The notes: generated by a model from the sequence alone, not told the origin. 64,000 nt of DNA from Terriglobia bacterium (GCA_965198225.1 CBDAOY010000006.1:160001-224000), one strand, 5' to 3'. Positions 6,651 to 27,708 are shown, counted from the first letter of the stretch. A program made the numbers and translations.

Positions 6651-6708
6651 CAGGTAAGTTCGCGCCGGGGCGAACTGGCGTGGCGAGGAACGGATAGACA
6701 CCGCTATA

Positions 6709-8239: not shown

Positions 8240-8347
8240 GTTTGGGCTCTATGATTCGTTCACGTCTTCCATGAGCTTGGGGTCACCAGGCTTCGAGGAC
8301 CCCACGCTATTCGCACCACGAACTCTGTGGCCACGGACAGACCTCGC

Positions 8348-8656: not shown

Positions 8657-8992
8657 GTCCTCACCAACCTCCCTCTAGCGTATTTTCGTTTCGCGTTCGG
8701 TAACCTCCCCATCCGACGCGAAGACTCAATGTCTCAATACATTGCAGGTTTTCGACCGCAGAGTCCACATTGGAAATTCACTAAATCCAGGTTCACAATT
8801 TTTCGAGAATGAAAATTGTAGGGATCCAAGCGATCGGCAATCTCGAATCTCCAATCTCGGATTTCCAATAATCAGCTCTTCTGCCGCTGCGCCGGGTCGC
8901 TAAGTGAACTTCAAAGCCCTGCCGATAAGAAACTTGGGGAACCGCTGAAAGTCCCGGTCTATTCAGGAACATACAGCGACATCGAGCAGGAC

Positions 8993-10723: not shown

Positions 10724-10725
10724 AG

Positions 10726-10832
10726 TATCGGCGATCAGCTCTCGGCAATCAGCTTTTGAGAACCGGTAGTGCTCCGCAGACCTGTACTGGCCTGCCTGGC
10801 TGAAAGCTGAAGGCTGAACGCTGACCGGCTAA
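10726..10832. repeat. Heptamer-periodic imperfect hairpin between convergent genes
   Basis: atcggcgatcagctctcggcaatcagc ... gctgaaagctgaaggctgaacgctgaccggct. Confidence 0.55.
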
Positions 10833-10833
10833 T

Positions 10834-11265
10834 TCACCGGCCAGTGATGTAGTTGATCAGCTCGTGGATGTGGAATTCGTTGTCTTCGACGATGCCCCGC
10901 ACCACGTCGCCGATCGAGATCACGCCGACGACTTTCTCGTCGACCACCACCGGCAGATGACGGACCCGTTTGTCGGTCATGAGGGCCATCGCCTCCTCGA
11001 TCGTGAGCTCGGGACGAGCGCAGATGACCGGAAAGGACATGATCTCGCGAACCTGGATTTCCCGCGACGCCTTCCCCTGCAGAATCACCTTGCGAGCGTA
11101 GTCACGCTCGGAAACGATGCCGACGAGCCGCTCGGCCTCCATGACCAGCAGCGCTCCGACACCCCTCTTCGCCATCTGATCGATCGCCTCGTAGACCGTG
11201 GCGTCCGGGGTCAGGGACCAGATTTCCCGACCCTTGTCGTTCAGGAGATGGGAGATCAGCTTCAT
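10834..11265 (-). CDS. CBS domain protein
   Basis: Tandem CBS pair: GIVSERDYARK, RHLPV, ISIGDVV. Confidence 0.9.
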   Translation of the reverse strand: MKLISHLLNDKGREIWSLTPDATVYEAIDQMAKRGVGALLVMEAERLVGIVSERDYARKVILQGKASREIQVREIMSFPVICARPELTIEEAMALMTDKRVRHLPVVVDEKVVGVISIGDVVRGIVEDNEFHIHELINYITGR

Positions 11266-11332
11266 GGAAACCTGCCTCGTCAGGGAGTTGCGGCTATGAG
11301 GTTAGCATTCACTCAGATTCCCGGCCAATGAC

Positions 11333-11548
11333 AAATCGAGCAATTTCCAACCTCCAACTTCCGATCCGGACTTGTACATTAATAAACCTGCGATAGATGG
11401 ACTCGTCTGTCCTATCGCACATCGCGATATCTGAACAATCCACATTGCAGGTTGCTCATTGGAAATTGCTTCATTTCAGATCTATTTCTTGGCCGAAACT
11501 CCGGCCAATTACGAATCGGGCATTTTCCGATCTCCGATTTCGAATGCG
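11333..11548 (-). repeat. TTG-periodic hairpin repeat family, about 1.5 copies in reverse orientation
   Basis: Reverse complement of the arms at 19399-19543, 26848-27023 and 43122-43280. Confidence 0.75.
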
Positions 11549-11760
11549 GCCGGACCTTTGGGTTCCACGGAGGCCGCAAAGCGTTGTAGACTATCCGCGC
11601 GTTTCCGCACAAAAGACCAAAACCCCGGTCGGACTACTGGAAAGGGACCAACAGAAATCATGAGAAGGTTGTCGCTCGGCAACGTTGTCGACTGGACCAG
11701 AGCTCGAAGTCACGCGGTCCACTACTGCGAGATTCACATCTCCGGCAATCAACCCGGCTA

Positions 11761-12294
11761 ATGACCTTGCTTACCGCAACCTTCTATTACCTGGCGGCCG
11801 CCAGTGTCGCAAGCGCCCTCCTCGCCGTTACACGCAAGAACCCGGTCCACAGCATGCTCTGGGTTCTGGCTCTCTTCCTGCACGTGGCGGGCATCTTCCT
11901 GCTTCTGAGTGCGGAGTTCCTTGCAGCAGTCCAGGTCATCGTGTACGCGGGCGCGATCCTGGTTTTCTACCTCTTTGTCCTGATGCTGCTCGACCTTCCC
12001 GGCGAGGAGGCGCGAACACCCTTCGGCGCCCACTGGCCGTTCGCCGCCTTGGCGGGCCTTTCTTTCGCCGTCCTGGCCTGGCTCTCGCAAGTCGAAAGCA
12101 TCGACCCGATTGCGGCCGGGGTCGCACCGCCCGCAGCCGCTACGGAGGGAGGTGCGCCTCTGGGAAGTCTGGCGGACGTGGGTATGGCACTCTTCGGTCC
12201 TTTCGCTCTACCTTTCGAAATGGCCTCGCTGATACTCCTGGCCGCGATCGTGGGCGCGGTCGTGCTCGCAAGGAAGAGGACTACAGAAGCATGA
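11761..12294 (+). CDS. nuoJ: NADH-quinone oxidoreductase subunit J
   Basis: KNPVHS, AEFLAAVQVIVYAGAI, LPFEMASLILL. Confidence 0.92.
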   Translation: MTLLTATFYYLAAASVASALLAVTRKNPVHSMLWVLALFLHVAGIFLLLSAEFLAAVQVIVYAGAILVFYLFVLMLLDLPGEEARTPFGAHWPFAALAGLSFAVLAWLSQVESIDPIAAGVAPPAAATEGGAPLGSLADVGMALFGPFALPFEMASLILLAAIVGAVVLARKRTTEA

Positions 12295-12596
12295 TTGTTC
12301 CGCTGGGTACGATCGTGGGATTGAGCGCTATCCTCTTCGGGATCGGTGTGTTCGGTTTCCTGGCACGGCGCAACATCATCCTGATGTTCGTCTCTGTCGA
12401 GATCATGCTCAATGCGGTTAACCTCAGCCTGGCCGGCTTCAGCCGGTACTTCGAAGATCCGCGGGGGCAGGTCCTGGCCCTTTTCGTGATCGCCGTCGCG
12501 GCCGCGGAGGCAGGGGTGGGGCTGGGGCTCGTGATTGCTTTGAACCGGAACCAGCCCGGAGCCGGCGTGGCGGACCTGACCAAGCTCAAATGGTGA
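12291..12596 (+). CDS. nuoK: NADH-quinone oxidoreductase subunit K
   Basis: ATG overlaps the nuoJ stop; RRNII, EIMLNAVN, AAAEAGVG. Confidence 0.92.
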   Translation: MIVPLGTIVGLSAILFGIGVFGFLARRNIILMFVSVEIMLNAVNLSLAGFSRYFEDPRGQVLALFVIAVAAAEAGVGLGLVIALNRNQPGAGVADLTKLKW

Positions 12597-14056
12597 ATTC
12601 TTCCGTCATCCCCCTTCTCGCGGTACTCGCCCCGGCCCTGGGCGCGCTCCTGATCGCATTTACTGGCGAGCGTCGCGCCAACCTGAGGGAGTTCTGGTCC
12701 GTGGCGGCCGGTGTTGTGATGTTCGCTCTGGTCGCCGCCATGATTCCGGAGGCGCTGGCCGGCCGAACGCCGGGCCTTGTGCTCTTTCGGATCCTCCCGG
12801 GGGTCGAACTCGCCTTCCGGGTGGACGCATTCGGTCTGCTCTTTGCCTCGGGGGCATCGCTGCTCTGGGTCCTGACTTCGTTCTACTCGATCGGCTACAT
12901 GCGTTCGCTCAAAGAGCACGCGCAGACGCGCTACTTTGCCTGTTTCGCCCTGGCCCTTTCCGCGACCATCGGCGTCGCGTTCTCGGCGAACCTTTTCACG
13001 CTGTTTCTGTTCTATGAAGGCCTGACGCTGGTGACCTACCCTCTCGTGGGTCATAAGGAGACTGCCGAGGCCCGTGCGGGGGCCCGCAAGTACGTCATCT
13101 ATCTTCTTGGTGCGGCGAAGGTGTTCCTGATCGCCGCGATCATCCTCACTTACAACGTAGCCGGAACTCTGGACTTCAAGAGCGGCGGCATCCTGCCGGC
13201 CAGCCAGATCGCGGAGCAGTCCACGCTTCTCTTCATGATCTTTGCTCTCTTCCTGTTCGGATTCGCCAAGAACGCGCTCATGCCGCTGCACAGCTGGCTT
13301 CCGGCGGCCATGGTGGCGCCCACGCCCGTGAGCGCGTTGCTGCACGCCGTTGCCGTAGTCAAGACCGGGGTCTTCTCCACGCTCCGGGTTTTCCTGTTTG
13401 TCTTCGGAGCGGACGCCATGCGCCAACTGGGAGCGGACCACCTGGCACTGGGGGCCGCGTCGGTAACGATCCTGGTCGCCTCGCTCCTCGCCCTGGGCCA
13501 GGACAACCTCAAAGCCCGGCTGGCTTTTTCGACGGTGAGCCAGCTCTCCTACATCATCCTGGGAGCGGCGCTCCTGAACGCCAGCGGGGTGCTGGGCGGC
13601 GTTGCCCATATTACGAACCACGCCGTGTCGAAGATCACGCTCTTCTTGTGCGCAGGCTCGATCTACGTGTCGACGCACAAGACTGAAATCAGCCAGATGT
13701 CCGGCCTGGCGCGGCGCATGCCTTGGACCATGGCTGCGTTCTCGCTCGCGTCGCTGAGCATCGTGGGCATTCCCCTCACTAGCGGCTTCGTATCCAAGTG
13801 GTATCTGGTCCTCGGCGCGGTGGAAAGCCAGACCCTCGTCCTGTTGGGCGTCCTGTTGGCCAGCTCGCTGCTGAGTGCGGCCTACCTCGGCCCGATCGTC
13901 TACCAGGCTTACTTCGGCGAGGAATCGCCGTCCGGCGAGGAGGTTCGCGAAGTTCCATGGATGGTCGCGCCCCTGGCCATCAGCGCGGCAGCCAGCCTGC
14001 TGCTGGGCCTCTTCCCTGCTCCTGTCCTCGAACTCGCCGGAAGGGTGATCCCGTGA
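12590..14056 (+). CDS. MrpD-like antiporter subunit in the NuoL position
   Basis: About 14 TM; FYEG, FAKNALMPLHSWLP, PTPVSALLHAVAVVK, LKARLAFST, GFVSKW. Confidence 0.85.
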   Translation: MVNSSVIPLLAVLAPALGALLIAFTGERRANLREFWSVAAGVVMFALVAAMIPEALAGRTPGLVLFRILPGVELAFRVDAFGLLFASGASLLWVLTSFYSIGYMRSLKEHAQTRYFACFALALSATIGVAFSANLFTLFLFYEGLTLVTYPLVGHKETAEARAGARKYVIYLLGAAKVFLIAAIILTYNVAGTLDFKSGGILPASQIAEQSTLLFMIFALFLFGFAKNALMPLHSWLPAAMVAPTPVSALLHAVAVVKTGVFSTLRVFLFVFGADAMRQLGADHLALGAASVTILVASLLALGQDNLKARLAFSTVSQLSYIILGAALLNASGVLGGVAHITNHAVSKITLFLCAGSIYVSTHKTEISQMSGLARRMPWTMAAFSLASLSIVGIPLTSGFVSKWYLVLGAVESQTLVLLGVLLASSLLSAAYLGPIVYQAYFGEESPSGEEVREVPWMVAPLAISAAASLLLGLFPAPVLELAGRVIP

Positions 14057-14316
14057 ACTTCCTCGAGAGACATCTGGAAGATCCCGTTCGCTTCGCCCGG
14101 ATAAAGCGCGTGTTCTATATTGTCCTGGCTGTTGTGGCAGCGGCGGAAATCGTTCTGCCACTGATCTTCCACGGGAGCGAACACCACTTCTCGTTCGAGA
14201 GCTTTCCCGCCTGGGGTTCGGTCTACGGCCTGGTTTCCTGCGTTGCGATCATCGTCGTGTCCAAGCTGATAGGAAAGGTGTGGCTCATGCGCCGCGAGGA
14301 CTACTATGACCGCTAG
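14053..14316 (+). CDS. Small 2-TM membrane protein (87 aa) between the MrpD-like genes
   Basis: GTG overlaps the upstream TGA; two hydrophobic helices; C-terminal LMRREDYYD. Confidence 0.75.
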   Translation: MNFLERHLEDPVRFARIKRVFYIVLAVVAAAEIVLPLIFHGSEHHFSFESFPAWGSVYGLVSCVAIIVVSKLIGKVWLMRREDYYDR

Positions 14317-14328
14317 GCGGGTGCGTCC

Positions 14329-16095
14329 ATGAATCTGGAATGGGTACACCCGGGACTCCTGCTCATCCTGGGCGCGTGGATTCTGCCGCTTCTCAGGGGC
14401 CGGGTCAAGCGCGCGGCGATGCTCGCCCTTCCCGCCGCAGCCCTCATCGATTGCCTGCTAATGACACCCGGAACCTACGGAGTGGCGAGCTTCCTCGGTC
14501 AGGACGTCGTGTTCGGCAGGGTCGACAGCCTGAGCCTGGTCTTTTCCTACGTCTTTTCGCTGATGGCTTTCCTGGGAATGGTTTACGCCCTCCATGTGGA
14601 AGACGATTCCCAGCACGTGGCCGCCCTGACCTACGCGGGGGGTGCGCTGGGGGTGACGTTCGCCGGAGACTTCCTCTCCTTCTACGTTTTCTGGGAGCTC
14701 ATGGCGATTTCATCGGCGCTGCTGGTGTGGCTGCGCCGCGAACCGGGCGCTACGGCGGCCGGGTTCCGGTACCTTCTGGTCCACCTGGTGGGCGGGCTCA
14801 TCCTCCTGGCGGGAATCGTGCTTCACTGGTCCCAGACCGGCTCACTTTCCTTCGGAGACATGGGAGCGTTTTCCGGAAGCATGGCATGGGCCCTGATCCT
14901 CGTCGCCTTTCTGCTGAACGCCGCGGTTCCGCCCCTCGGCGCATGGCTTCCCGACGCCTACCCCGAAGCCACCGTCACGGGCGCGGTTTTCATGACCGCT
15001 TTCACGACGAAGTCCGCCGTCTACGCACTGATCCGCGGTTTCGCCGGTACGGAAATCCTGGTGTGGCTGGGGGCGATCATGGCCATCTACGGCGTGGTTT
15101 ACGCCGTGTTGGAAAACGACGCGCGGCGGCTGCTCGCCTACCACATCGTCAGCCAGGTCGGCTACATGGTCTGCGGGGTGGGAATCGGCACAGCCCTGGC
15201 CCTGAACGGCGCCTCGGCCCACGCCTTCGCTCACATCATTTACAAGGCGCTTCTATTCATGGGAGCCGGCGCCGTCCTCGAGATGACGGGTTTCAGAAAG
15301 CTGAACGAAATGGGCGGACTCTACAAGACCATGCCGGTCACGCTCGGCCTCTACATGATCGGCGCCTTCGCCATCTCGGCCGTACCCCTGTTCAGCGGAT
15401 TCGTGAGCAAGTCCATGGTGGTTTCCGCCGCCGGCGAAGAACACCTGGCGGCGATCTTTCTCATGCTGACCCTCGCCTCGGCCGGGACTTTCCTTCACAC
15501 CGGTCTCAAGCTTCCTTATTACATGTTCTTCGGCAAGGATTCGGGTACGCGCGCCGCAGAGCCGCCCAGGAACATGCTCGTGGCCATGGGGCTTGCCGCG
15601 GCTGCGTGTGTGTTGATCGGCGTTTTCCCGGGACTCCTGTACCCGCATCTTCCGTACCCGGCGGATTACCTTCCGTATACCCTTGCCCACGTGACGAACA
15701 CGCTCGGGATCCTGGCCTTCACGGCGCTGGGATTCTTCCTTCTGCTGAAGCACCTGGACCCGGAACCCAAGATCAGCCTCGACACGGACTGGTTCTACCG
15801 TCGGGGTTCGGCCGGCTTCTTGAAGCTTGTCCAGAGTCCTCTGACGCGTCTCGAGTACGGCTTCGTCGGAGAGATCTATGAGTTTGTGATACGTCGTCCC
15901 GTCTTGAGTGCGGCGAGCGTCCTGCGCAAGTTCGACACCCTCGTTGTCGATTCGGCGGCACTGGGCGTGGGCCGTTCGAGCCAATCCTTGAGCCAGATCC
16001 TGAGGAGGGTGGTGAGCGGCCACACGCAGCAGTACGGGCTGCTCATGGCGGCCGGCATCCTCGCGCTCCTGGTCCTGGCGGTGCTCGCGCGATGA
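14329..16095 (+). CDS. Na+/H+ antiporter subunit D-like protein with NuoL-like C-terminal helix and TM
   Basis: FWELM, LLNAAVPPLGAWLPDAY, RRLLAYHIVSQVGY, HAFAHIIYKALLF; tail DTDWFY ... SGHTQQYGLLMAAG. Confidence 0.85.
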   Translation: MNLEWVHPGLLLILGAWILPLLRGRVKRAAMLALPAAALIDCLLMTPGTYGVASFLGQDVVFGRVDSLSLVFSYVFSLMAFLGMVYALHVEDDSQHVAALTYAGGALGVTFAGDFLSFYVFWELMAISSALLVWLRREPGATAAGFRYLLVHLVGGLILLAGIVLHWSQTGSLSFGDMGAFSGSMAWALILVAFLLNAAVPPLGAWLPDAYPEATVTGAVFMTAFTTKSAVYALIRGFAGTEILVWLGAIMAIYGVVYAVLENDARRLLAYHIVSQVGYMVCGVGIGTALALNGASAHAFAHIIYKALLFMGAGAVLEMTGFRKLNEMGGLYKTMPVTLGLYMIGAFAISAVPLFSGFVSKSMVVSAAGEEHLAAIFLMLTLASAGTFLHTGLKLPYYMFFGKDSGTRAAEPPRNMLVAMGLAAAACVLIGVFPGLLYPHLPYPADYLPYTLAHVTNTLGILAFTALGFFLLLKHLDPEPKISLDTDWFYRRGSAGFLKLVQSPLTRLEYGFVGEIYEFVIRRPVLSAASVLRKFDTLVVDSAALGVGRSSQSLSQILRRVVSGHTQQYGLLMAAGILALLVLAVLAR

Positions 16096-17558
16096 CTGGC
16101 TATCCCATCCTGACGGCGACCACGTTCCTGCCCCTTGTGGGTGCGGTGTTGATCCTTTTCCTCGGCAGTGATCGGCTTGCGCGCTGGATCGCGCTGGCCA
16201 CGACTCTGGCGACTCTGGCGATTTCGGGCCCGCTCTATCTGAACTTCGACAAGAGCTCGAGCGCGCTGCAGTTCGTCGAGTCTGCGGACTGGATCCCGGC
16301 GTGGAACATCGCCTACAGCATGGGCGTGGACGGCATCAGCCTGCCGTTCATCTTCCTGGCCTCGGTCTTGAGCGTCCTGTGCGTCAGCGTCTCGTGGACT
16401 GCGGTTGGGACGCGAGTGCGCGAGTTCTATTCCGCGCTCCTGGTGGCGGAGACCGCGATGATCGGCCTTTTTGCCGCATCGAATCTGTTCCTCTTCTACA
16501 TATTCTGGGAACTCATCCTCGTTCCGATCTTTCTAATGATCGGTGTCTGGGGAGGTCCGACGCGCATCTACGCGGCGGTCAAGTTTCTGATGTTCACCCT
16601 GGCCGGCAGCGTCCTGATGCTCGTGGGTCTGATCGCCCTCTACCAGACCTTCGGCACGCTGGACTTCAAGGCTCTTGCCTCGGCGAGCGGGGACCTCGAT
16701 TCCACACACCAGTCCTGGCTCTTCGCGGCATTCCTGGCCGCCTTCGCGGTCAAAGTACCGATGTTCCCCGTACATACGTGGCTCCCGGACGCCCACACCG
16801 AGGCGCCCACGGCGGGTAGCGTTATTCTGGCCGGGATCCTCCTCAAGATGGGGGCCTACGGTTTCCTGCGTGTTTCGCTTCCCATACTTCCAGACGCTGT
16901 GCAGCTTTTCGCGACGCCCATGCTGATCGTCTCCGCGGTCGCCATCGTCTACGGCGCGTACGTGACCCTGGTTCAGACCGACGTCAAGCGCCTCATCGCC
17001 TACTCGAGCGTCAGCCACATGGGTTTCGTCACTCTGGGCATCTTCACTCTCGACGGCAACGGGGTCGAGGGCGCCCTCCTGCAGATGATCAACCACGGCA
17101 TCCTCAGCGCGGCGCTCTTCCTGTGCGTCGGGATGATCTACGAACGCACGCATACCCGCGAGATCAAGGACTACGGCGGCGTCGCCAGAACCGCGCCGGT
17201 CTACTCCACCCTGCTGGCACTGTTCTGTCTGGCCGCCGCAGGGTTCCCGGGTTTGAATTCGTTCGTCGGAGAGTTCCTCATCATCGGCGGCGCCTTCAGG
17301 ACCCAGCCCTGGCTCGGAGCCATGGCCGTCTGGGGTGTCGCCCTTGGAACCGCCTACCTGGTATGGCTCTACTACCGGGTCGTCATGGGCGAGATCAACC
17401 CGGGTCTTGATGGACTCAAGCTCGAGCTCAACGCGCGTGAGGTGGCAACGCTGGCTCCGCTGGCCCTGCTGGCGTTGGGCCTCGGCCTCTACCCCGAGTT
17501 GGTGCTCTCCTATCTTCATGTTCCCGTGGCGGAGCTGCTCGCCGGGGTCACGCCGTGA
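16092..17558 (+). CDS. nuoM: NADH-quinone oxidoreductase subunit M
   Basis: GVDGIS, FWE, KVPMFPVHTWLPDAHTEAPT, LLKMG, FVGEF. Confidence 0.92.
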   Translation: MTGYPILTATTFLPLVGAVLILFLGSDRLARWIALATTLATLAISGPLYLNFDKSSSALQFVESADWIPAWNIAYSMGVDGISLPFIFLASVLSVLCVSVSWTAVGTRVREFYSALLVAETAMIGLFAASNLFLFYIFWELILVPIFLMIGVWGGPTRIYAAVKFLMFTLAGSVLMLVGLIALYQTFGTLDFKALASASGDLDSTHQSWLFAAFLAAFAVKVPMFPVHTWLPDAHTEAPTAGSVILAGILLKMGAYGFLRVSLPILPDAVQLFATPMLIVSAVAIVYGAYVTLVQTDVKRLIAYSSVSHMGFVTLGIFTLDGNGVEGALLQMINHGILSAALFLCVGMIYERTHTREIKDYGGVARTAPVYSTLLALFCLAAAGFPGLNSFVGEFLIIGGAFRTQPWLGAMAVWGVALGTAYLVWLYYRVVMGEINPGLDGLKLELNAREVATLAPLALLALGLGLYPELVLSYLHVPVAELLAGVTP

Positions 17559-18976
17559 AGGGTGCAACCGTCGCCGACCTCGCCCTGCTCGTGCCCGAGT
17601 TGATTCTTGTCGGGATGGCCCTCGTACTGATTCTTGTGGCGCGTCGAGTCCAGACAACGCCGGTCGCCGCAGTGGGCACTGTGATCGCGGCGCTGGGGGC
17701 AGCCGTGGCCTCCGCGTGGATGTTGTCCGGCGACACCGTTACCGGCTTTGGGGGCATGATCACCCTCGACGGGTACTCCCAATTCTTCAAGGTCCTTATC
17801 GCCGCCACTCTGGCGCTGGCCGCGCTTCTTTCGGTACGGAGCCTCGACGGAGATCAGATCCCGCGTGGGGAGTACCACGCCCTGTTGCTGTTGGGCGCGA
17901 CGGGAATGATGCTCGCGGTGTCGGCTCTCGATCTACTGACTCTCTACCTGGGCCTGGAGCTCATGACGCTCTGCTCCTACATCCTGGTCGGGATTCGGGT
18001 GGACCGACCGGCGTCGAACGAGGCTGCAATCAAATATTTCCTCCTCGCTTCCTTCGCCTCGGCCGTGCTTCTCTACGGGATCGCCCTGACCTACGGCGTC
18101 ACCGGCGCTACGGACTTTGCAGCCATAGCCGTGGCCATTTCCGAGGGCGGGATGGGCGGCAACCCGATACTCCTGATAGCAGTAGGGCTGGTGACGGCCG
18201 GGCTCGCCTTCAAGATTGCGGCAGTACCGTTCCATTCCTGGGCGCCGGATGCTTACCAGGGTGCGAGCGCACCGGTGGCGGCTTTTCTGGCTGCCGGTTC
18301 CAAGGCGGCCGGCCTGGCGGCACTGGGACGGGTCGGCCTGATCGCCTTCGGAGCGGAAGCCCGCGTCCTGTCCATGGTCCTGATCGGGCTCGCGGCCCTA
18401 TCGATCGTCGTGGGTAGCTTCCTCGCGCTGTCCCAGACCGACATGAAGCGGCTACTCGCATATTCTTCGATCACTCATGCGGGCTACGCTCTGCTGGGTC
18501 TGATCGCCGGAACTCCGGAGGGAGTTTCGGCGACGATGACCTACACCTTCTTCTATGTCTTCATGACGCTCGGGGCTTTTGGAGTGGTCATCGCTCTGGG
18601 CGAGCGGGGCGAGAAACTGGACGGCTACCAGGGACTGGCAGCCCAGCGGCCAGGCACATCCCTGCTCATGCTCCTGTTCCTGCTGTCCCTGACCGGCATC
18701 CCTCCGACGGCCGGGTTCGTGGCCAAGTTCGTCGTGATCCTCAGCGCGGTCCGTGCGGGCCATACGGCGCTGGCGGTCCTGGCCGTGGCCTGCAGCGTGG
18801 TGACCGCGTTCGTGTACTTGCGGGTGGCCGTCCTCATGTACATGAGAGAGCCGGAGGAACCGGCACCTTCGCGTTTACCGGTCGCCATATCCGCAGCCCT
18901 TGCAGTGGCCGCGCTAGTCACTCTAGCCGGGGGCATTTCCCCGGGCAGCTTCGTGCCGTGGGCGGTGTCACCCTGA
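17555..18976 (+). CDS. nuoN: NADH-quinone oxidoreductase subunit N
   Basis: GLELM, EAAIKYF, FKIAAVPFHSWAPDAYQG, KRLLAYSSI, GFVAKF. Confidence 0.92.
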   Translation: MKGATVADLALLVPELILVGMALVLILVARRVQTTPVAAVGTVIAALGAAVASAWMLSGDTVTGFGGMITLDGYSQFFKVLIAATLALAALLSVRSLDGDQIPRGEYHALLLLGATGMMLAVSALDLLTLYLGLELMTLCSYILVGIRVDRPASNEAAIKYFLLASFASAVLLYGIALTYGVTGATDFAAIAVAISEGGMGGNPILLIAVGLVTAGLAFKIAAVPFHSWAPDAYQGASAPVAAFLAAGSKAAGLAALGRVGLIAFGAEARVLSMVLIGLAALSIVVGSFLALSQTDMKRLLAYSSITHAGYALLGLIAGTPEGVSATMTYTFFYVFMTLGAFGVVIALGERGEKLDGYQGLAAQRPGTSLLMLLFLLSLTGIPPTAGFVAKFVVILSAVRAGHTALAVLAVACSVVTAFVYLRVAVLMYMREPEEPAPSRLPVAISAALAVAALVTLAGGISPGSFVPWAVSP

Positions 18977-19030: not shown

Positions 19031-19384
19031 GTGAACGAATACATCGGTATCGCTGTTAGTTTTGTTGTGGCCGCAGGGATCGCCGGCGCGATGGTGTTCC
19101 TGAGCTCCGTGCTGGGTAAGAAGAACCCTACGCCGGAAAAGATGTCGCCGTTCGAATGTGGCAAGGATCCGTTCTCGCTACCGATGGGAAGGTTGGCGAT
19201 CAAGTTCTACCTGACCGCGATCCTGTTCATCCTCTTCGACGTCGAGCTCGTCTTCCTCTATCCGTGGGCCGTCGTGTTCCGACAGCTGGGATTCCTGGGC
19301 TTGACCGAGATGGGCGTCTTCCTGGGCATCCTGATGGTGGGTTTCGTTTACGCCTGGGACAACGGCGCACTTGACTGGCAATAA
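19031..19384 (+). CDS. nuoA: NADH-quinone oxidoreductase subunit A
   Basis: PFECG, FILFDVELVFLYPWA, GALDW. Confidence 0.93.
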   Translation: MNEYIGIAVSFVVAAGIAGAMVFLSSVLGKKNPTPEKMSPFECGKDPFSLPMGRLAIKFYLTAILFILFDVELVFLYPWAVVFRQLGFLGLTEMGVFLGILMVGFVYAWDNGALDWQ

Positions 19385-19398
19385 AGGAGAGGGGCTCT

Positions 19399-19650
19399 AT
19401 CGCAGATTGGTCATCGGACGAGTCCACATTGGAAGTTGGAGATTGTAAATTGCTCGATTTCTACATTGTTCGGAAATCTGAAATGAAGCAATTTGCAATG
19501 AGCAACTTGCAATGCGGATTGTTCAAATATCGCAATTTGCGATAGGACCGGATCTTCTTTGGGTGCTTGAAAGACGGGATCCATCGCAGATTGGTCATCG
19601 AACGAATCCGCTTTGGAAGTTGGAGATTGGAGATTGCTCCATTTGAAATC
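19399..19650 (+). repeat. TTG-periodic hairpin repeat family (full copy 19399-19543 plus a left arm from 19583)
   Basis: atcgcagattggtcatcg...ttggaagttggagattg / aatctgaaatgaagcaattt...caatttgcgat. Confidence 0.8.
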
Positions 19651-19685
19651 TTCGAATACGAGCGAAATCGACTGACAGTGAAGCT

Positions 19686-20192
19686 ATGACGGACACGACC
19701 ACATCGTTCTTAACCAGCCGCCTTGACAAGGCAATCGGCTGGGCTCGGAAATACTCGATCTTCCAATACCCTTTTGTGACGGCGTGCTGCGGGATGGAGT
19801 ACATGGCGACAGCCTGCTCTCACTACGACGTGGACCGCTTCGGAGCGGGCTTCCCCCGGTTTTCGCCGCGCCAGGCCGACGTGCTCTTCGTCGTGGGCAC
19901 GATCAGTCACAAGATGGCGCCCGTCTTGAAACGCATCCATGAGCAGATGGCCGACCCCAAGTGGGTGGTCGCGTTCGGAGTGTGCACATGTACGGGCGGT
20001 TTCTATGACAACTATGCAACGGTGATGGGTATCGACACGATCATGCCGGTGGATGTCTACATACCCGGATGCCCGCCGCGGCCGGAGATGGTCCTTGACG
20101 GGCTGATGAAGCTCCAGGACAAGATCCAGGACGAGCGAACAACCGGCGTGCGGGCCGAAGCCGAACCTCGCCCGGACATCTTCGAAGCATGA
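19686..20192 (+). CDS. nuoB: NADH-quinone oxidoreductase subunit B
   Basis: ACCGME, SPRQAD, PGCPPRPE. Confidence 0.95.
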   Translation: MTDTTTSFLTSRLDKAIGWARKYSIFQYPFVTACCGMEYMATACSHYDVDRFGAGFPRFSPRQADVLFVVGTISHKMAPVLKRIHEQMADPKWVVAFGVCTCTGGFYDNYATVMGIDTIMPVDVYIPGCPPRPEMVLDGLMKLQDKIQDERTTGVRAEAEPRPDIFEA

Positions 20193-20770
20193 ATACGGCC
20201 TCTTTGATCGAGTCCGTCAAGAACCAGTTCCCGGATGCGGTCCGGGGGTCGCATATTTACCGGGGTGATGCCACCCTGGTCTTGCGGCCCGAATGCCTGG
20301 TCGAAGTGGCGCGGTTTCTCAAGGAAGACCCGGCCTTCCGCATGAACTTCCTGGTAGACGTGACCGCCGTCGACTACCTCACCTTCGGAAAACGGCCGAC
20401 TCCGGCTTTCTTCGCGTCCTCCGGAGTGGCGGTGAAGCCCTCTTCTCAGATTCCCGACGAGGACCCCTGGCCCGGCCCGCCCGCCCGGTCGCGCTTCGCC
20501 CTCGTCTACCACTTCTACTCGATGGCCCACAAGCATCGACTCCGTCTGGTGGTTCCCGTCGAAGAGACCGATGCCGTGGTGGACTCCGTGACCGCTTTGT
20601 GGCCTGGAGCCGACTGGCTCGAGCGCGAGGTCTGGGACATGTTCGGGATCGACTTCCGGGGCCACCCGGACCTGAGGCGCATCCTCATGTACGACGAGTT
20701 TGAAGGTCACCCGTTGCGCAAAGACTATCCCGTCAACAAACGACAGCCCCTGATCGGACCCGTCAACTGA
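20189..20770 (+). CDS. nuoC: NADH-quinone oxidoreductase subunit C
   Basis: DVTAVDY, WLEREVWDMFGI, GHPDLRRIL, HPLRKDYP. Confidence 0.93.
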   Translation: MNTASLIESVKNQFPDAVRGSHIYRGDATLVLRPECLVEVARFLKEDPAFRMNFLVDVTAVDYLTFGKRPTPAFFASSGVAVKPSSQIPDEDPWPGPPARSRFALVYHFYSMAHKHRLRLVVPVEETDAVVDSVTALWPGADWLEREVWDMFGIDFRGHPDLRRILMYDEFEGHPLRKDYPVNKRQPLIGPVN

Positions 20771-20779
20771 TCCGCGCCG

Positions 20780-22159
20780 ATGGACACGACTCCAATGCCC
20801 GAGACAAACCCGACACCCGAGAGCCAGACCGAGAATCTCGAAACGCGCGACATGATGCTCAACATCGGTCCCGCGCACCCGGCCATGCACGGCATCATCC
20901 GGATCGTGTCCAAACTCGATGGGGAACAGATCCAGGAGGCCGACGTGGAGATCGGCTACCTCCACCGCGGTTTCGAAAAGATGTCGGAGGTGGTCGACTA
21001 CAACGGCGTTGTCCCTTACACCGACCGGCTCAACTACGTCTCGCCGCTCATCAACAACATGGGCTACTGCATGAGCGTGGAGAAACTGCTGGGAATCTCG
21101 GTCCCGGAACGCTGCCACTATGTCCGGGTCATCCTTTCAGAAATCTCGCGGATCTCAGACCACCTCACCTGCGTCGGGGCGAGCGCCATGGAACTGGGGG
21201 CCTTCACCGTCTTTCTCTACATGGTCAAGGCGCGCGAGTATCTCTGGGAACTCGTGGAGAAGGTGACCGGCGCCCGCCTGACGGTCAGCTACTGCCGTGT
21301 CGGCGGGGTGAAGGCCGACCTCCCCGACGATTTCGCCGAACCCTGCCGCAAGGCTTTTGAGGAGACCCGCAAGGTCCTCTCCGAATCACACGGACTTCTC
21401 ACACGAAACCGCATCTTCGTAGACCGCATGAACGGAACGGGCGTGATCTCGCAGGAGGACGCCATCTCTTACGGGATTACGGGCCCCTTCCTTCGTTCCA
21501 CAGGCGCCGATTACGACGTGCGCAAGGACTGCCCCTACGCCGTCTACGACCAGATCCCTTTCGAAGTGCCGGTGGGAAGCCAGGGCGACAACATGGACCG
21601 GTACCTTGTACGCATGGAAGAGATGGAGCAGTCCATGCGCATCGTGGAAAGGGCGCTCGCGGACATCCCGGCCGGCGCGGTCCAGGTTGATCCGGAGACC
21701 GGACGCGACATCCCGGCGGCAGAGATGGTGGATCTTGCGAAGGTTGGAAACATCGCGGCGATCTCGGGCGGTTGCGCCGTGCCGGGCCCTACTCTCGAGG
21801 GCTCGGGGCGTGCCCAACGTCCCTCTATTGCAGCCGACGAGAAGCGGGCCTTCCTCCCATCGAAGGAGGACACCTACGGCAACATCGAAGGACTGATGAA
21901 CCATTTCAAGCTGGTCATGCACGGCCACGGCGTGCGGCCTCCGGCTGGAGAGGTCTACTTCCCGGTGGAAGGGGCCAACGGCGAGCTGGGATTTTACGTG
22001 ATCAGCGACGGAGCGGGGAACCCATTCCGGGTCCGGGTACGGCCGCCCTGCTTTGCCATCATGTCGGCTCTATCGAAACTCCTTACCGGCGACATGATCG
22101 CCGACATGGTCCCCACCTTCGGGTCGGTCAACATGATCGGTGGAGAACTGGACCGGTAG
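20780..22159 (+). CDS. nuoD: NADH-quinone oxidoreductase subunit D
   Basis: NIGPAHPAMHG, GYLHRGFEK, DRLNY, GELDR. Confidence 0.95.
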   Translation: MDTTPMPETNPTPESQTENLETRDMMLNIGPAHPAMHGIIRIVSKLDGEQIQEADVEIGYLHRGFEKMSEVVDYNGVVPYTDRLNYVSPLINNMGYCMSVEKLLGISVPERCHYVRVILSEISRISDHLTCVGASAMELGAFTVFLYMVKAREYLWELVEKVTGARLTVSYCRVGGVKADLPDDFAEPCRKAFEETRKVLSESHGLLTRNRIFVDRMNGTGVISQEDAISYGITGPFLRSTGADYDVRKDCPYAVYDQIPFEVPVGSQGDNMDRYLVRMEEMEQSMRIVERALADIPAGAVQVDPETGRDIPAAEMVDLAKVGNIAAISGGCAVPGPTLEGSGRAQRPSIAADEKRAFLPSKEDTYGNIEGLMNHFKLVMHGHGVRPPAGEVYFPVEGANGELGFYVISDGAGNPFRVRVRPPCFAIMSALSKLLTGDMIADMVPTFGSVNMIGGELDR

Positions 22160-22262
22160 CATTGGAGATTGCTGGAGTTGTTATTGGTCAGAAAATCTGA
22201 AATGAAGCAATTTCCAATGAACAACCTGCAATGTGGATTGTTCAGATATCGCGATTTGCGAT
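22160..22262 (+). repeat. TTG-periodic hairpin repeat family, partial copy
   Basis: aatctgaaatgaagcaatttccaatgaacaacctgcaatgtggattgttcagatatcgcgatttgcgat. Confidence 0.75.
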
Positions 22263-22318
22263 ACGTCATTCAAAAACGCGATTTGCAACTAGACCACTAA
22301 GCTTTCGGAAGAGCTGAA

Positions 22319-24106
22319 TTGGCAGACCTTGAAAGCAAAGCCGACGAGATCATAGGGCGCTACGAGTACCCCAAGGCCGCCATGTTGCCTCTGTTGTGGC
22401 TCGTCCAGGAAGACCGCGGCTGGGTCTCCCCGGAAGACGAGGCCTGGGTTGGGCGCAAGCTTGGGGTGGCGATCTCCCACGTGCGCGAGGCGGTCTCCTT
22501 CTACAACATGTTCCACACCCGACCCGTGGGCCGGCGAGAGCTCCGGGTCTGCACTTCTCCGCCGTGCATGCTGCGCGGTGCCGACGATCTGATGGAGCAG
22601 ATCAAAGAGCGTCTCAAGATCGGTCCGGGCGAGACCACCTCCGGCCTGTCTGTCACGCTCACGGAGGTCGAATGCCTGTGCGCCTGCGAGATGGCGCCCA
22701 TGGCCCAACTTGACGAACGTTTTGTCGGACCTCTCGAAGGTGAAAGCGTCGATGCCATTGTCTCCGACGCGCTCACCGAACCGGGCAACCCCGAATCGAC
22801 GCCGGAGCCGAACCCCTTCATCTGCTCGGACGGGCCGGTGCTGTCGACACGTCTCGGCAACACCGAGGGAACGTGGTTCCAAGCCTACACGGCGGACGAG
22901 GGTTACCTAGCGGCCAGGAAGGTACTGAGTACGATGAAGCCCGAAGACGTGATCGACGAGGTTTCCAAAGCCAACTTGCGCGGTCTGGGCGGCGCGGGAT
23001 TTCCGGCGGGCAGGAAGTGGTCGTTCGTCCCGAAGGGTTCAAACAAGCCCAGGTATCTGGTCGTAAACGCGGACGAGGGCGAGCCCGGCACTTTCAAGGA
23101 CCGCTACATCATGGAGCGGGATCCTCACGCGCTGCTCGAAGGCATGATCCTCGCCGCCTACGCGATCGGAAGTCACAAGGCCTATGTCTACATCCGCGGT
23201 GAGTACTTCCGGTCTGCCAAGCGCCTGCAGCGTGCCATAGACGAGGCCTACAGCCAGGGCTGGCTGGGCAAGGACATACAGGGAACAGGCTTCGATCTGG
23301 ACGTGGTTGTCCACCGCGGGGCAGGTGCCTATATCTGCGGCGAAGAGACCGCACTGCTTACCTCGCTCGAGGGCGGAAAGGGCTTTCCCCGCCTGAAGCC
23401 CCCGTTCCCAGCTATCTCGGGTCTCTTCGCCTGTCCCACGATCGTCAACAACGTGGAAACACTGGCCTGCGTGCCTTTCATCATGCGCTACGGTGCCGAA
23501 CGCTTCGCCGCAATCGGCACGGCCAAACAGGGTGGCACTCGGCTTTTCTGCGTGAGCGGACATGTGGTCCGTCCGGGTGTGTACGAAGAGCCGGTGGGCG
23601 TGACCCTGAGGGAACTGATCGAGAAAGCCGGGGGCGTCCGCGACGGAAACAAGCTGAAGGCCGTCATCCCCGGCGGAATTTCGGCCAAAATCCTGACGTC
23701 GGATGAGATCGACGTGGGCATGGACTTCGACTCCCTCATGGCCGCCGGCAGCATGGCAGGTTCCGGCGGTGTCATCGTGATGGATGAGACGACTTCCATC
23801 GTCGAGGCGCTGGATTGGGCGGCCAAGTTCTTCGCCGACGAGTCGTGCGGCCAGTGCTCGCCGTGTCGCGAGGGAACCGGCTGGGTCCATCGCATCCTGG
23901 GCCGTATCCTGGACGGCAACGGGAGCGTCCAGGACCTGGACGATCTTCTCGGCATCGCCGGCGATATGGAAGGAAATACGATCTGCGTCTTCGCCGACGC
24001 GGCAGCCTGGCCGGTTCAGTCCTACATCGCGAAGTTCCGTGACGAGTTCGAAGAGTTCATCCGCAGCGGTCGGAGGGCCGGGAGCCGGGAGGCCGCCCAT
24101 GCCTAA
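22319..24106 (+). CDS. nuoF: Fused NADH-quinone oxidoreductase subunits E and F
   Basis: N-terminal NuoE (SFYNMF, CTSPPC, ECLCAC) in frame with NuoF (GLGGAGFP, NADEGEPGTFKD, GAGAYICGEETAL, ESCGQCSPCREG). Confidence 0.92.
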   Translation: MADLESKADEIIGRYEYPKAAMLPLLWLVQEDRGWVSPEDEAWVGRKLGVAISHVREAVSFYNMFHTRPVGRRELRVCTSPPCMLRGADDLMEQIKERLKIGPGETTSGLSVTLTEVECLCACEMAPMAQLDERFVGPLEGESVDAIVSDALTEPGNPESTPEPNPFICSDGPVLSTRLGNTEGTWFQAYTADEGYLAARKVLSTMKPEDVIDEVSKANLRGLGGAGFPAGRKWSFVPKGSNKPRYLVVNADEGEPGTFKDRYIMERDPHALLEGMILAAYAIGSHKAYVYIRGEYFRSAKRLQRAIDEAYSQGWLGKDIQGTGFDLDVVVHRGAGAYICGEETALLTSLEGGKGFPRLKPPFPAISGLFACPTIVNNVETLACVPFIMRYGAERFAAIGTAKQGGTRLFCVSGHVVRPGVYEEPVGVTLRELIEKAGGVRDGNKLKAVIPGGISAKILTSDEIDVGMDFDSLMAAGSMAGSGGVIVMDETTSIVEALDWAAKFFADESCGQCSPCREGTGWVHRILGRILDGNGSVQDLDDLLGIAGDMEGNTICVFADAAAWPVQSYIAKFRDEFEEFIRSGRRAGSREAAHA

Positions 24107-25718
24107 GCTGACCATCGACGGCCGCGAGGTGAACGTGGCTGACGGATCCACCGTCATCCAGGCGGCCGAACAGCTGGGAATCTTCGTTCCGCGCTACTGC
24201 TACCACCCCGGCCTGTCCATTGCGGGCAACTGCCGCATCTGCCTGGTGGATGTGGAGAAGGCCCCCAAGCTCCAGATCGCCTGTAACTCGCCCGCAACGG
24301 AAGGCATGGTGGTGCACACCACCAACGACAAGGCCGAGGACGGCCGCCGGGCGGTCCTGGAGTTCCTCCTGGCCAATCACCCGCTCGATTGCCCGGTCTG
24401 CGACCAGTCCGGTGAGTGCGACCTGCAGAATTTCTACATGAACTTCGGCCTCTACAACCCGCGCTTCCGTGAACACAAGGTCAAAAAGCAGAAAGCCGTC
24501 GAACTCGGCCCCCATGTGATGCTGGACCAGGAGCGCTGCATTCTCTGCTCGCGCTGTGTGCGCTTCACGGACGAGATTACGAAAACCGGCGAGTTCGGCA
24601 TCTTCAATCGGGGGGACCGTGCCGAGTTGGGGCTCTATCCGGGTGACGTACTCGACAACCCCTACTCGGCCAACGTCGTCGACATCTGTCCGGTCGGCGC
24701 ACTGACCGAGAATGATTTCCGTTTCAAGGCCCGGGTCTGGTACCTCTCCAGCGCCCCCACGATCTGCAATGGCTGCAGCCAGGGATGCAACGTGGATATG
24801 CACTATGTCCTCGACCGTCCCCACTTGAACGATGGGGCTCGCGTCGTGCGTCTCAAGCCCCGCTACAACGCGGATGTAAACGAATGGTGGCTGTGCGACG
24901 AGGGGCGATACGGCTTCGGATGGCTGGATCGAGACAGATTACAGAAAGTTCGCGGGCCGGCAGCGGCAAGTGCAGCTGCAACCTGGGATCAGGCCCTCAA
25001 CGCGATCTCGACAGCCCTCGGCGAAGGCTATGGGGACGGCGCTCGGATCGGCGTACTCGCGTCGGCTCAGCTCACCAACGAGGAGCTTTTCCTGATCCGG
25101 GAGGTCTTCCAGCGGGGTCTGGGCGCGCGAGTCAGCGCTGTGGTTCCGGATGAGCCTGGAACCTCGGACGATTTCCTCATCAAGGCGGACAAGAATCCCA
25201 ACACCGCGGGAACCACCATCCTGGGCCTGACCGGCGGGGATGCAACTGACGGCGCGCTGATCGTCGACGAGGCGCTGGCGGGGAACGTCGACGTCCTGTG
25301 GGTTATCGGGCACGACATGGTGGCCCTCTTCGGGGAGGAGAGGGTCCGAGAGCTATCGGAGCGGGTGGGTCTGTTCGTCTTCTCGGGGACAAACCAGAAC
25401 CCAACCGTACCGTTCGCTCATTGGGTCCTGCCGACCGCGGCCTACGTGGAAAAGGACGGCACCTTCGTGAACTGCCACGGTCGGATCCAACGCATCGGTC
25501 TTGCCGTTCCGCCCCTGGATGACTCGAGAGAAGAGTGGCGCATCCTGCTTGAACTGGCTGGAAAGCTCGGCCTCGGGCTCGATTGGAAGGAACCGGAGGA
25601 GATTTTCCGGGCGCTCGCCGAAGCCGAGACGGCGTTCGAAGGGTTGAGCTATGACACGATCGGATCTCAGGGGGTCGATGTCCGCCCGACCGCGCCCGCG
25701 GGGACCATCGAATCATGA
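24099..25718 (+). CDS. nuoG: NADH-quinone oxidoreductase subunit G (short, 539 aa)
   Basis: CYHPGLSIAGNCRIC, HPLDCPVCDQSGEC, CILCSRC, CNGCSQGC. Confidence 0.9.
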   Translation: MPKLTIDGREVNVADGSTVIQAAEQLGIFVPRYCYHPGLSIAGNCRICLVDVEKAPKLQIACNSPATEGMVVHTTNDKAEDGRRAVLEFLLANHPLDCPVCDQSGECDLQNFYMNFGLYNPRFREHKVKKQKAVELGPHVMLDQERCILCSRCVRFTDEITKTGEFGIFNRGDRAELGLYPGDVLDNPYSANVVDICPVGALTENDFRFKARVWYLSSAPTICNGCSQGCNVDMHYVLDRPHLNDGARVVRLKPRYNADVNEWWLCDEGRYGFGWLDRDRLQKVRGPAAASAAATWDQALNAISTALGEGYGDGARIGVLASAQLTNEELFLIREVFQRGLGARVSAVVPDEPGTSDDFLIKADKNPNTAGTTILGLTGGDATDGALIVDEALAGNVDVLWVIGHDMVALFGEERVRELSERVGLFVFSGTNQNPTVPFAHWVLPTAAYVEKDGTFVNCHGRIQRIGLAVPPLDDSREEWRILLELAGKLGLGLDWKEPEEIFRALAEAETAFEGLSYDTIGSQGVDVRPTAPAGTIES

Positions 25719-26830
25719 TTGAGACCCTGGTCATCAAGCTGGTCCTGGTCAGTATCGTGTTTTTCGGTGTCCTGAACCTGGCGGGTTTTCACACCTGGGT
25801 GGAGCGGAAGCAATCGGCCCTCATCCAGGACAGGATCGGGGCCAACCGCGCCGACATTTTCGGCTTTCGGCTGCTGGGAATGCTTCACGGCGTGGCCGAC
25901 GTGATCAAGATGTTCACCAAGGAGGACATCGTCCCGGACGGCGCGGACAAGACCCTCCACACGCTGGCTCCTTTTTTCTCGGTCTTCTTCGCCCTGGTCG
26001 TTTTTGCAGCAGTCCCCTTTGGACCCAGCCTCATCCTGGGGGAAAGGGTCATCGAACTCCAGGTCGCCAAGATCGACGCGGCGCTGCTCTACATCTTTGC
26101 AATGCTCTCACTCGGGGTCTATGGAGTGATCCTGGGGGGCTTTGCCTCGCGAAACAACTACGCCATTCTCGGCGGACTGCGGGCAACGGCGCAGATGATC
26201 TCCTACGAGATTGCACTGGGCATCGCCGTCCTCGGAGTGATCATGGTCCATGGGACCATGGACCTGAATGAGCTGGTCCTGGCCCAGGGGCAGCTGATCG
26301 GCGGCTGGATCCCTCTCTGGGGTATCGTCACCCAGCCGGTGGCTTTCTTCATTTTCCTGACCGCGGCCCTCGCTGAGACCAAGAGACTTCCCTTCGACAT
26401 ACCGGAAGGCGAGTCGGAAATCATCGGCTATTTCGTCGAGTACAGCGGGATGAAGTTCGGAATGTTCTTCCTCACGGATTTCCTGGAAACCATCGTGGTG
26501 GCATGCCTGGCGACGACACTCTTTTTTGGCGGTTGGCAAGTGCCCTTCCTTGTGGCGGATTACGAGACTGCGACCTTCGGCTTCCACTTCCCCTGGGGTG
26601 GGGAGTTGTTGGTCTCCAACATTGTCTACGTCCTGCTCGGGGTCGCCAGCTTTTCGTTCAAGAGCTTCGTCTTCCTTTTTGTATTCATGCAGCTGCGCTG
26701 GACGCTGCCGCGCTTCCGTTACGACCAGCTGATGAGCCTGGGCTGGAAAGGGCTGTTCCCGATCTCGGTGGCGAACGTCGTCGTGACAGCCGTGGTGCTG
26801 TCTTTTTTCGGGCAAGGGTTTTCTGAGTGA
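25715..26830 (+). CDS. nuoH: NADH-quinone oxidoreductase subunit H
   Basis: ERK...QDRIG, AQMISYE, PFDIPEGESE, RFRYDQLM. Confidence 0.95.
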   Translation: MIETLVIKLVLVSIVFFGVLNLAGFHTWVERKQSALIQDRIGANRADIFGFRLLGMLHGVADVIKMFTKEDIVPDGADKTLHTLAPFFSVFFALVVFAAVPFGPSLILGERVIELQVAKIDAALLYIFAMLSLGVYGVILGGFASRNNYAILGGLRATAQMISYEIALGIAVLGVIMVHGTMDLNELVLAQGQLIGGWIPLWGIVTQPVAFFIFLTAALAETKRLPFDIPEGESEIIGYFVEYSGMKFGMFFLTDFLETIVVACLATTLFFGGWQVPFLVADYETATFGFHFPWGGELLVSNIVYVLLGVASFSFKSFVFLFVFMQLRWTLPRFRYDQLMSLGWKGLFPISVANVVVTAVVLSFFGQGFSE

Positions 26831-26847
26831 GCGGCCCGTGAAGAGTT

Positions 26848-27023
26848 ATTGCAGATTGGGTCATTGCACGAATCCGCATTGCAAGTTGGAGATTGGAAAT
26901 TGCTGAATCTGTCATCGGTCGGAGGCCTGGAATCGTCCCCGGCAAGCTTCCCAGAATCTGAAATGAAGCAATCTACAATGAGCAACCTGCAATGCGGATT
27001 GTTGAGATATCGCAATTTGCAAT
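26848..27023 (+). repeat. TTG-periodic hairpin repeat family, full copy
   Basis: Both arms present, matching 19399-19543. Confidence 0.8.
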
Positions 27024-27078
27024 CGAACCCACTGAAACTAAGTTTTCGAACGAGACTCTTCTTCGGGGAGGGGTCATA

Positions 27079-27708
27079 GTGGCTGCAAAGGTAAAGGTCG
27101 TCCGCAGGCCCGAGCTGACCTTTTGGGAGAAACTCTACATTCCCCAGATCGTGTCGGGCCTCAAGATCACCTTCCGACATTTCTTCCGCAACCTCTTTCT
27201 GCACATCGCCCACCAGGCGGGCCGCTACACGAACGTCTCCGCCGCGGCCACCATCCAGTACCCCGAGGAGCTCCGGCCCCTCATGTCTCGGTTCCGCAGC
27301 CGCCACAGGCTGACCCTGCGTGAGGACAAGACCCCGCGCTGCGTGGGGTGCATGCTCTGTGAAACGGTCTGCCCGGCCAAATGCATCACCATCGTGCCCG
27401 GTGAGCATCCCGACCCCATGGTGGAGAAGTACCCGATCCGCTTCGACATCGACTTGGGCGTCTGCGTCTACTGCGGCTACTGCGTCGAGGTGTGCCCCGA
27501 GGACGCCATCCGGATGGACACGGGTATCCTCGATGTCGCCGCCTACTCGCGCGAGGCCATGCAGCTGGACATCCATGAACTGATGGATCCTCAATTGCGC
27601 AAACCGATCGCCGACTGCAGCCTGGAATTTCCCCACAAGTGCGAACTGACCGGCGGAGAAATTAAGGGTAACTGGGACGTGTTGACGAGGCCCGAGTCAG
27701 GTGACTGA
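27079..27708 (+). CDS. nuoI: NADH-quinone oxidoreductase subunit I
   Basis: GTG start after GGAGGGG; TIQYPEE; two CxxCxxCxxxCP motifs. Confidence 0.92.
   Translation: MAAKVKVVRRPELTFWEKLYIPQIVSGLKITFRHFFRNLFLHIAHQAGRYTNVSAAATIQYPEELRPLMSRFRSRHRLTLREDKTPRCVGCMLCETVCPAKCITIVPGEHPDPMVEKYPIRFDIDLGVCVYCGYCVEVCPEDAIRMDTGILDVAAYSREAMQLDIHELMDPQLRKPIADCSLEFPHKCELTGGEIKGNWDVLTRPESGD

Follow-up and report, generated by a model that had tools for sequence, protein, structure and literature searches.

What takes the place of NuoL in a complex I operon that lacks it, and what would the replacement mean for proton pumping? The question is raised by a 64,000-nucleotide stretch of DNA from a Terriglobia bacterium (GCA_965198225.1 CBDAOY010000006.1:160001-224000; hereafter the window, from whose first letter positions are counted), in which three genes encoding proteins of 488, 87 and 588 residues lie between nuoK and nuoM. 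The reading that we favour, at a probability of about 0.7, is that the operon would encode a complete NADH:quinone oxidoreductase in which this trio stands in for NuoL, with a four-module, proton-translocating membrane arm of the order NuoN-NuoM-488-588. The operon is almost certainly a member of the published green complex I type, described from rhizobia as carrying two MrpD-like subunits in place of NuoL (PMC9040806, citing Degli Esposti 2016).

Three genes in place of nuoL

The operon has the gene order J-K-488-87-588-M-N-A-B-C-D-EF-G-H-I, ends at 27708 and comprises the following features.

11761..12294, + strand: nuoJ (177 residues), which opens the operon; PF00499, PRK06638
12291..12596, + strand: nuoK (101 residues); PRK05715.1-2, 107 bits against a cut-off of 57
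12590..14056, + strand: 488-residue antiporter-like subunit, annotated as MrpD, corresponding to 'MrpD1' of green complex I; PRK08375.1-1
14053..14316, + strand: 87-residue membrane protein outside any named family, likely an accessory subunit; conservation and linkage
14329..16095, + strand: 588-residue antiporter-like subunit, corresponding to 'MrpD2'; PRK12668
15778..16020, + strand: predicted lateral amphipathic helix of the 588-residue protein (residues 484-564); alignments and tail profiles
16092..17558, + strand: nuoM (488 residues); TIGR01972, 583 bits against a cut-off of 264
17555..18976, + strand: nuoN (473 residues); TIGR01770, 392 bits against a cut-off of 333
19031..22159, + strand: nuoA, nuoB, nuoC and nuoD; NCBIfam
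22319..25718, + strand: fused nuoEF (595 residues) and short nuoG (539 residues, ATG at 24099), the NADH input module; NCBIfam and Pfam
25715..27708, + strand: nuoH and nuoI; NCBIfam and Pfam

The reading frames bear out the tight packing of the trio reported in a first-pass annotation of this DNA: the nuoK frame, ending at 12596, overlaps the start of the 488-residue gene at 12590; the 87-residue gene has a GTG start and a 4-nucleotide overlap with the stop of the 488-residue gene; and the 588-residue gene follows after a gap of 12 nucleotides and shares an ATGA overlap with nuoM. The same annotation saw no canonical nuoL in the operon, and the family scores agree, TIGR01974 (NuoL) giving 203 and 154 bits for the 488- and 588-residue proteins against a cut-off of 407.5. 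The best NCBIfam model is PRK08375.1-1 for the 488-residue protein (642 bits, slightly below the cut-off of 663) and PRK12668 for the 588-residue protein (753 bits; cut-off 564). Beside the trio the operon holds one nuoM, one nuoN and the NADH module, where fused nuoEF scores 606 bits with TIGR01959 and also carries the NuoE domain, and where nuoG is recognized by TIGR01973 and is short in close relatives as well. The catalytic motifs, as read from the translations, appear intact, which is how the catalytic subunits had been judged at first pass.

Distribution and phylogeny of the trio

Eighty-two loci were examined, 80 of them from GTDB genomes (the best 80 of 560) and two from plasmids; 12 distant matches (31-36% identity) and two loci without one full open reading frame (L052, L062) were dropped, leaving 68 orthologous loci. 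Fifty of these are nuo-type loci with nuoM directly behind the 588-type gene, 15 are Mrp-type and three are cut or unclear. Each of the 50 nuo-type loci has a single nuoM, and none shows a nuoL within the fetched flank; the small gene is found in 49 of them, the 488-type gene in 48 and nuoK in 46, the four incomplete loci lying at contig ends. They are spread over seven phyla as named in the sequence records (Acidobacteriota, Planctomycetota, Elusimicrobiota, Nitrospirota, Nitrospinota, Pseudomonadota and Thermodesulfobacteriota), and the nearest proteins among the best 80 of 560, at 84%, come from Terriglobia, Bryobacterales or Vicinamibacteria records. Searching plasmids with tblastn returned 101 records, 99 of them from Sinorhizobium, Rhizobium, Ensifer, Phyllobacterium or Pararhizobium. 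Mrp small-subunit genes were detected by Pfam in all six Mrp-type loci scanned. When 40 genomes, that of the window included, were searched, 15 had a match, and the three matches that were fetched (51-54% identity) are Mrp operons.

A tree of 86 rows, unrooted as to direction, contained two NuoL rows and none of MrpA. In it the 488-type proteins make up one clade and the 588-type proteins another (support of 100 for each in the Shimodaira-Hasegawa-like approximate likelihood ratio test), both containing nuo-type, Mrp-type and rhizobial members. The idea that an Mrp-derived trio replaces NuoL is thus upheld by clades shared with Mrp-operon and rhizobial orthologues, no other Mrp operon having been found in the genome. 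A phylogeny and a synteny survey had been proposed as checks at first pass. In the former, both proteins group apart from NuoL, NuoM and NuoN, and an open fork joins the clades of the 488-type, 588-type, NuoM, NuoN/D1 and NuoL proteins; with this fork and so few NuoL and MrpA rows, the tree does not name the sister family of either protein. The latter distinguished the nuo-type from the Mrp-type loci. The subtrees of the trio and those of NuoM and NuoN have the same near branching.

As a separate observation, five loci (L070, L071, L073, L075 and L080) encode proteins of ~1265 residues that resemble fusions of at least two antiporter-like modules, ahead of hydrogenase-4-like genes.

Core residues and the missing TM7 lysine

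The 488-residue protein has the key residues E143, K227 in transmembrane helix 7 (TM7), H252 and K258 in TM8 (MrpA-like), H340, H344 and K348, and K403, and so retains the TM5 glutamate/TM7 lysine pair. In the 588-residue protein the canonical NuoL pairing of the TM7 lysine with the TM5 glutamate is absent, Asn197 standing at the lysine position where every other aligned subunit has lysine. The asparagine occurs in 63 of 64 sequences of the 588 family, all 15 Mrp-type members included, the remaining sequence being unmatched by the pattern. According to PMC7419157 the TM7 lysine is essential and conserved without exception; its replacement abolished turnover in Paracoccus NuoM (K232Q; PMC9802314) and, in work that PMC4938563 cites, a K229A change lowered catalysis in NuoL of E. 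coli. By analogy with these mutants, the loss of the lysine would argue against a normal pump in the 588-residue subunit and makes a fifth pumped proton doubtful, so that the odds of five H+ per two electrons are, in our estimate, a little short of even.

It is quite possible, though less likely than not, that the arm has four modules and only three pumps, the 588-residue subunit being a non-pumping cap that carries the clamp while the 488-residue subunit does the pumping of NuoL, with the usual stoichiometry of four protons. The near-universal asparagine speaks for this, as do the TM8 and TM11 histidines of the 488-residue protein, which are of the NuoL/MrpA type. The 488-residue protein does, however, lack the acid after the TM12 lysine that both NuoL proteins of the genome possess, and the 588 family has kept residues that a purely structural subunit need not keep: all 47 of the 588-type proteins aligned, the present one among them, have E123, K228, H298, H302, K306 and K361, and His152 in TM6 is found in 64 of 64 family sequences. 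One guess from these alignments is that His152 could replace the TM7 lysine as a gate. That the hybrid subunit, with an Mrp D3 body and a NuoL clamp end, pumps without the lysine by means of His152 working against Glu123, alongside an unnamed 87-residue subunit, is a tentative proposal that we hold to be about one chance in three; if true, it would amount to a natural test of the role of the Glu/Lys pair in complex I coupling and of whether each module contributes one proton.

A hybrid clamp and the order of the subunits

TM15 of NuoL closes the distal face. The canonical NuoL features, namely TM15, the lateral helix and the TM16 clamp, are found in the 588-residue protein only. Its AlphaFold model has the core, a further transmembrane helix (452-476), long helices at 487-501 and 504-561 and a final transmembrane helix (566-587), and the model and the tail alignments both agree with the first-pass description of an amphipathic stretch and a last transmembrane helix resembling the NuoL clamp. 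Landmarks of the lateral helix are the anchor D485/D487, E509, the NuoM-latch equivalent D536 and G564 ahead of the last transmembrane helix. Over its final ~75 residues the protein can be aligned with NuoL/NdhF tails of solved structure (E-values of 3e-8 to 4e-3). Foldseek ranked MrpA, NdhF and NuoL about equally and leaves the class undecided. A profile of residues 512-588 finds the NuoL tails of the same genome at 55 and 69 bits, while 15 of 15 Mrp-type tails stay at or below 2.9 bits; a profile of residues 470-511 does the reverse, finding the 15 Mrp-type tails at 15-75 bits and missing both NuoL proteins. As judged from these reciprocal profiles, the tail is a hybrid in which a body and proximal tail of the Mrp type are joined to a distal clamp of the NuoL type. 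From this we infer that a D2-small-D3 module of a three-MrpD Mrp operon may have entered a nuo operon and that its D3 took on the NuoL clamp end, a direction read onto a tree that is itself unrooted.

The length of the clamp bears on where the subunit sits. D487 and G564 are 77 residues apart, compared with 52 in the canonical NuoL of the genome (NuoL646). Of the 50 nuo-type proteins, 46 have a span of 76-77; three others escape the pattern with a normal total tail length, and one has a span of 104. An excess of 26 residues in this helix has been linked to one more subunit (PMC9040806), a figure matched by the ~25-residue excess found here. Conservation of D536 reaches at least 90% in the alignment; its counterpart in Paracoccus is D648, which is bound to His239 and Tyr315 of NuoM (PMC9802314). 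The 77-residue span and this alignment would place about two helix periods between the 588-residue body and NuoM, compared with one in NuoL. The histidine at the latch position in TM7 is present in 61 of 61 488-type proteins and in only 11 of 47 nuo-type 588 proteins. Because of the longer clamp helix, the D536 latch and the latch histidine kept in the 488 family, we favour the order N-M-488-588, with the 588-residue subunit outermost and the 488-residue subunit probably internal, between it and NuoM.

Several points weigh against this order and against the reading built on it. The 588-residue model has a predicted local distance difference test (pLDDT) score of only ~40-54 from residue 471 onward. 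Helix length is an imperfect ruler: the NuoL of a headless cluster in the same genome has a 76-residue span beside one nuoM, a 588-type protein (L058) has a span of 104 with one nuoM, such inserts also occur in ordinary clusters (PMC9040806) and Mrp-type tails range from 71 to 154 residues. A manual count that starts where TM15 ends makes the helix just ~12 residues longer than that of NuoL646. The 488-residue protein has the MrpA/NuoL-type TM8 histidine, the usual mark of an outermost subunit, and biochemistry of any green complex was not found in the literature searched.

The TM8 histidine, the long helices that occur without an extra subunit and a TM15-to-TM16 length only ~12 residues above the canonical one are also what can be said for the order implied at first pass, in which the 588-residue subunit lies next to NuoM as NuoL does and the 488-residue protein is docked at the tip with the aid of the small protein. 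We consider that order unlikely, as the 588-residue protein has its own TM15 and carries an Mrp-type anchor segment ahead of a complete NuoL-type clamp, and as the latch histidine is invariant in the 488 family; the length of the helix and the residues of the latch both speak for a 488-residue subunit that lies internally.

Two further observations concern long clamp helices elsewhere. The headless nuoA-D,H-N cluster mentioned above (L083:10406-12511, equivalent to G000:C8:478406-480511) encodes a true NuoL with a long helix of the 2M type (span of 76) but has only one nuoM; no spare nuoM for it was found in the genome. The 588-type proteins at L058:4855-6690 and L035:15-1538 have a further helix repeat of ~26 residues, giving spans of 104 and 102; L058 has a cupredoxin-like open reading frame between its one nuoM and nuoN, and L035 is a contig fragment.

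Proposed working of the enzyme and coupling ion

In the predicted four-module arm of the order NuoN-NuoM-488-588, the clamp would start on the 588-residue body, cross the 488-residue subunit, latch onto NuoM through D536 and end at NuoN/J/K, the crossing being suggested by a clamp that is one subunit-width (~25 residues) longer than the canonical one. The drive for a central charged axis through N, M and the 488-residue subunit, all three of which have the TM5 Glu/TM7 Lys pair, would come from the oxidation of NADH at EF/G and the reduction of quinone at B/D/H. The 588-residue subunit, with E123, K228 and K361 kept, would pump only if the invariant His152 takes over the gate, given the asparagine in place of the TM7 lysine. 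The 87-residue protein would likely stabilize the two Mrp-derived subunits.

We consider H+ the probable coupling ion. Na+ coupling, which the first-pass annotation had also entertained, would have the Mrp-derived pair make the enzyme translocate Na+ or exchange it for H+. The Mrp ancestry of both subunits invites that view, and PMC4938563 argues that NuoL and MrpA conduct Na+, a property it ties to the TM8 motif whose histidine the 488-residue protein shares. Na+ coupling is nonetheless improbable, since there is no Mrp Na+ domain here. The Mrp structure puts the route of Na+ in MrpBCEFG/MrpA-C and excludes the MrpA-N/MrpD interface (PMC7419157), and searches of the genome, which is 97% complete, with the MnhE, MrpG, MnhB and MrpF families gave no match each, positive controls being included. 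These searches extend to the whole genome the first-pass statement that mrpB, E, F and G are lacking.

That the trio is a passenger or part of another complex and does not assemble with NuoM and NuoN can be set aside as very improbable: the same trio does occur in Mrp operons, MrpD-like pairs are found in a terminal-oxidase cluster (PMC9040806) and two true nuoL genes, of which one specifies a long helix, lie elsewhere in the genome, in the two canonical L-M-N clusters on contig C8 that hold its other antiporter-like genes, but no Mrp partner or separate Mrp operon to which the trio might belong was found in the genome, the NuoL-type clamp end occurs only in nuo-linked copies, the trio's reading frames overlap nuoK and nuoM, and its subtrees share their near branching with those of NuoM and NuoN.

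The 87-residue membrane protein

No NCBIfam or Pfam family was found for the 87-residue protein. By sequence criteria it is a real, conserved gene, since it has 1087 homologue clusters and adjoins 65 of the 68 orthologous 588-type genes, missing from just one of the 50 nuo-type loci and one of the 15 Mrp-type loci, a linkage that makes an accessory subunit its likely role. A two-helix hairpin is predicted in which G59, K71 and Y85 are invariant, in a structure model of low confidence (predicted template-modelling score of 0.36). Across 70 members no common Pfam family emerged, the best being a weak FeoB_C in 7 of 70; there was no match among PDB sequences, the fold search returned generic helical hairpins only (best Z 6.9), and the ESM Atlas clusters are all 'hypothetical'. 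A weak search for fused forms, among 8000 candidates scored, yielded one 184-residue match on an 877-base, apparently chimeric contig. The predicted complex of the 488-residue (residues 6-480) and 588-residue (3-440) proteins with the small partner, with a score of 0.06 and a mark of 0.32, was used neither for nor against an assembly.

Other features of the operon and its flanks

In the region 20189-25718, NuoC and NuoD have inserts relative to the family models, nuoE is fused to nuoF and NuoG has ~540 residues; Acidobacteriota, Planctomycetota and Elusimicrobiota loci show the same lengths. A 553-residue open reading frame directly after nuoI (27747-29408, + strand) has no NCBIfam or Pfam family, and a CBS-domain gene (10834-11265, - strand) is divergent from nuoJ; CBS genes, which are common, lie within the flank of 17 of 50 nuo-type loci, both rhizobial ones included. 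A dispersed intergenic repeat with ~105 blastn matches genome-wide lies at 11321-11481, 19398-19638, 22186-22270, 26846-27035 and 43120-43283, its sites including those upstream of nuoJ and between nuoA/B, D/E and H/I. Contig C1 is a 99.7-99.9% copy of 3230-12113, a region that lies ahead of nuoJ and reaches into it, but carries a multi-copy insertion of 1634 bases at position 8675; it is probably a strain variant with an insertion element. A promoter and terminator scan gave chance-level results (2 vs 3.2 and 18 vs 14.2). In two contig sets from RNA libraries, short stretches that are 100% identical to the genes for the 488- and 588-residue proteins and to nuoM, nuoN, nuoB-D, nuoG and nuoH occur at a depth of 2-4; DNA carry-over being possible, they were not used as evidence of expression.

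Comparison with known systems

The first-pass annotation had singled out this operon as its best candidate for an unusual system; the layout is already in print as green complex I (PMC9040806), and the locus adds a further example to a variant of complex I that is both published and widespread. As a family the variant remains useful: S. meliloti, one of its hosts, is tractable, and the biochemistry of the complex appears uncharacterised. The family offers a natural four-module arm whose likely last module lacks a lysine held to be essential, and its proton stoichiometry would bear on how the number of antiporter modules relates to protons pumped. In the literature searched we found no account of the small gene, the TM7 asparagine, the hybrid tail or the subunit order, a weak negative given that the original 2016 definition is known only through the citing paper.

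Like the green complexes, the operon has two MrpD-like subunits replacing NuoL, a single NuoM and NuoN, an NADH module and the order nuoJK, membrane arm, nuoA-G, which is also that of the S. meliloti 1021 and Ensifer canadensis loci. On pSymA of S. meliloti 1021 the genes run J-K-D-small-D-M-N-A-B-C-D-E-F-G without nuoL, the trio shares 56% (488), 46% (87) and 59% (588) identity with ours, the helix span is 76-77 and the TM7 asparagine is present. The present operon differs from the rhizobial ones in its host lineage, with nearest relatives in the Acidobacteriota, in its nuoE-nuoF fusion and its NuoG of 539 residues (rhizobial, ~870), and in that nuoH-I follow on the same strand, whereas the rhizobial nuoH-I face the operon.

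Complex_I_3 of Ca. Manganitrophaceae, compared by description only, likewise has NuoL replaced by two MrpD-like subunits, related to those of rhizobia according to PMC9040806, but adds a second NuoM and a further 26-residue helix insert to reach five modules; our operon has one nuoM, no second insert and a span of 77 as in rhizobia, and falls outside that type. The 2M type of Chadwick et al. (2018; cited in PMC9040806 and PMC7784846) is described as sharing the four antiporter-like subunits and a clamp helix ~26 residues longer, but it retains NuoL and gains its fourth subunit by a second NuoM, whereas the operon described here has one nuoM and no nuoL. Finally, the three-MrpD Mrp operons of ANME-2, Geoglobus, Desulfobacterota and other bacteria (mrpE-F-G-B-C-D1-D2-small-D3) contain orthologues of all three genes, arranged as here (488-type, small, 588-type) and with the TM7 asparagine, but differ in their Mrp small subunits, their third MrpD and a D3 tail without the NuoL-type clamp end.

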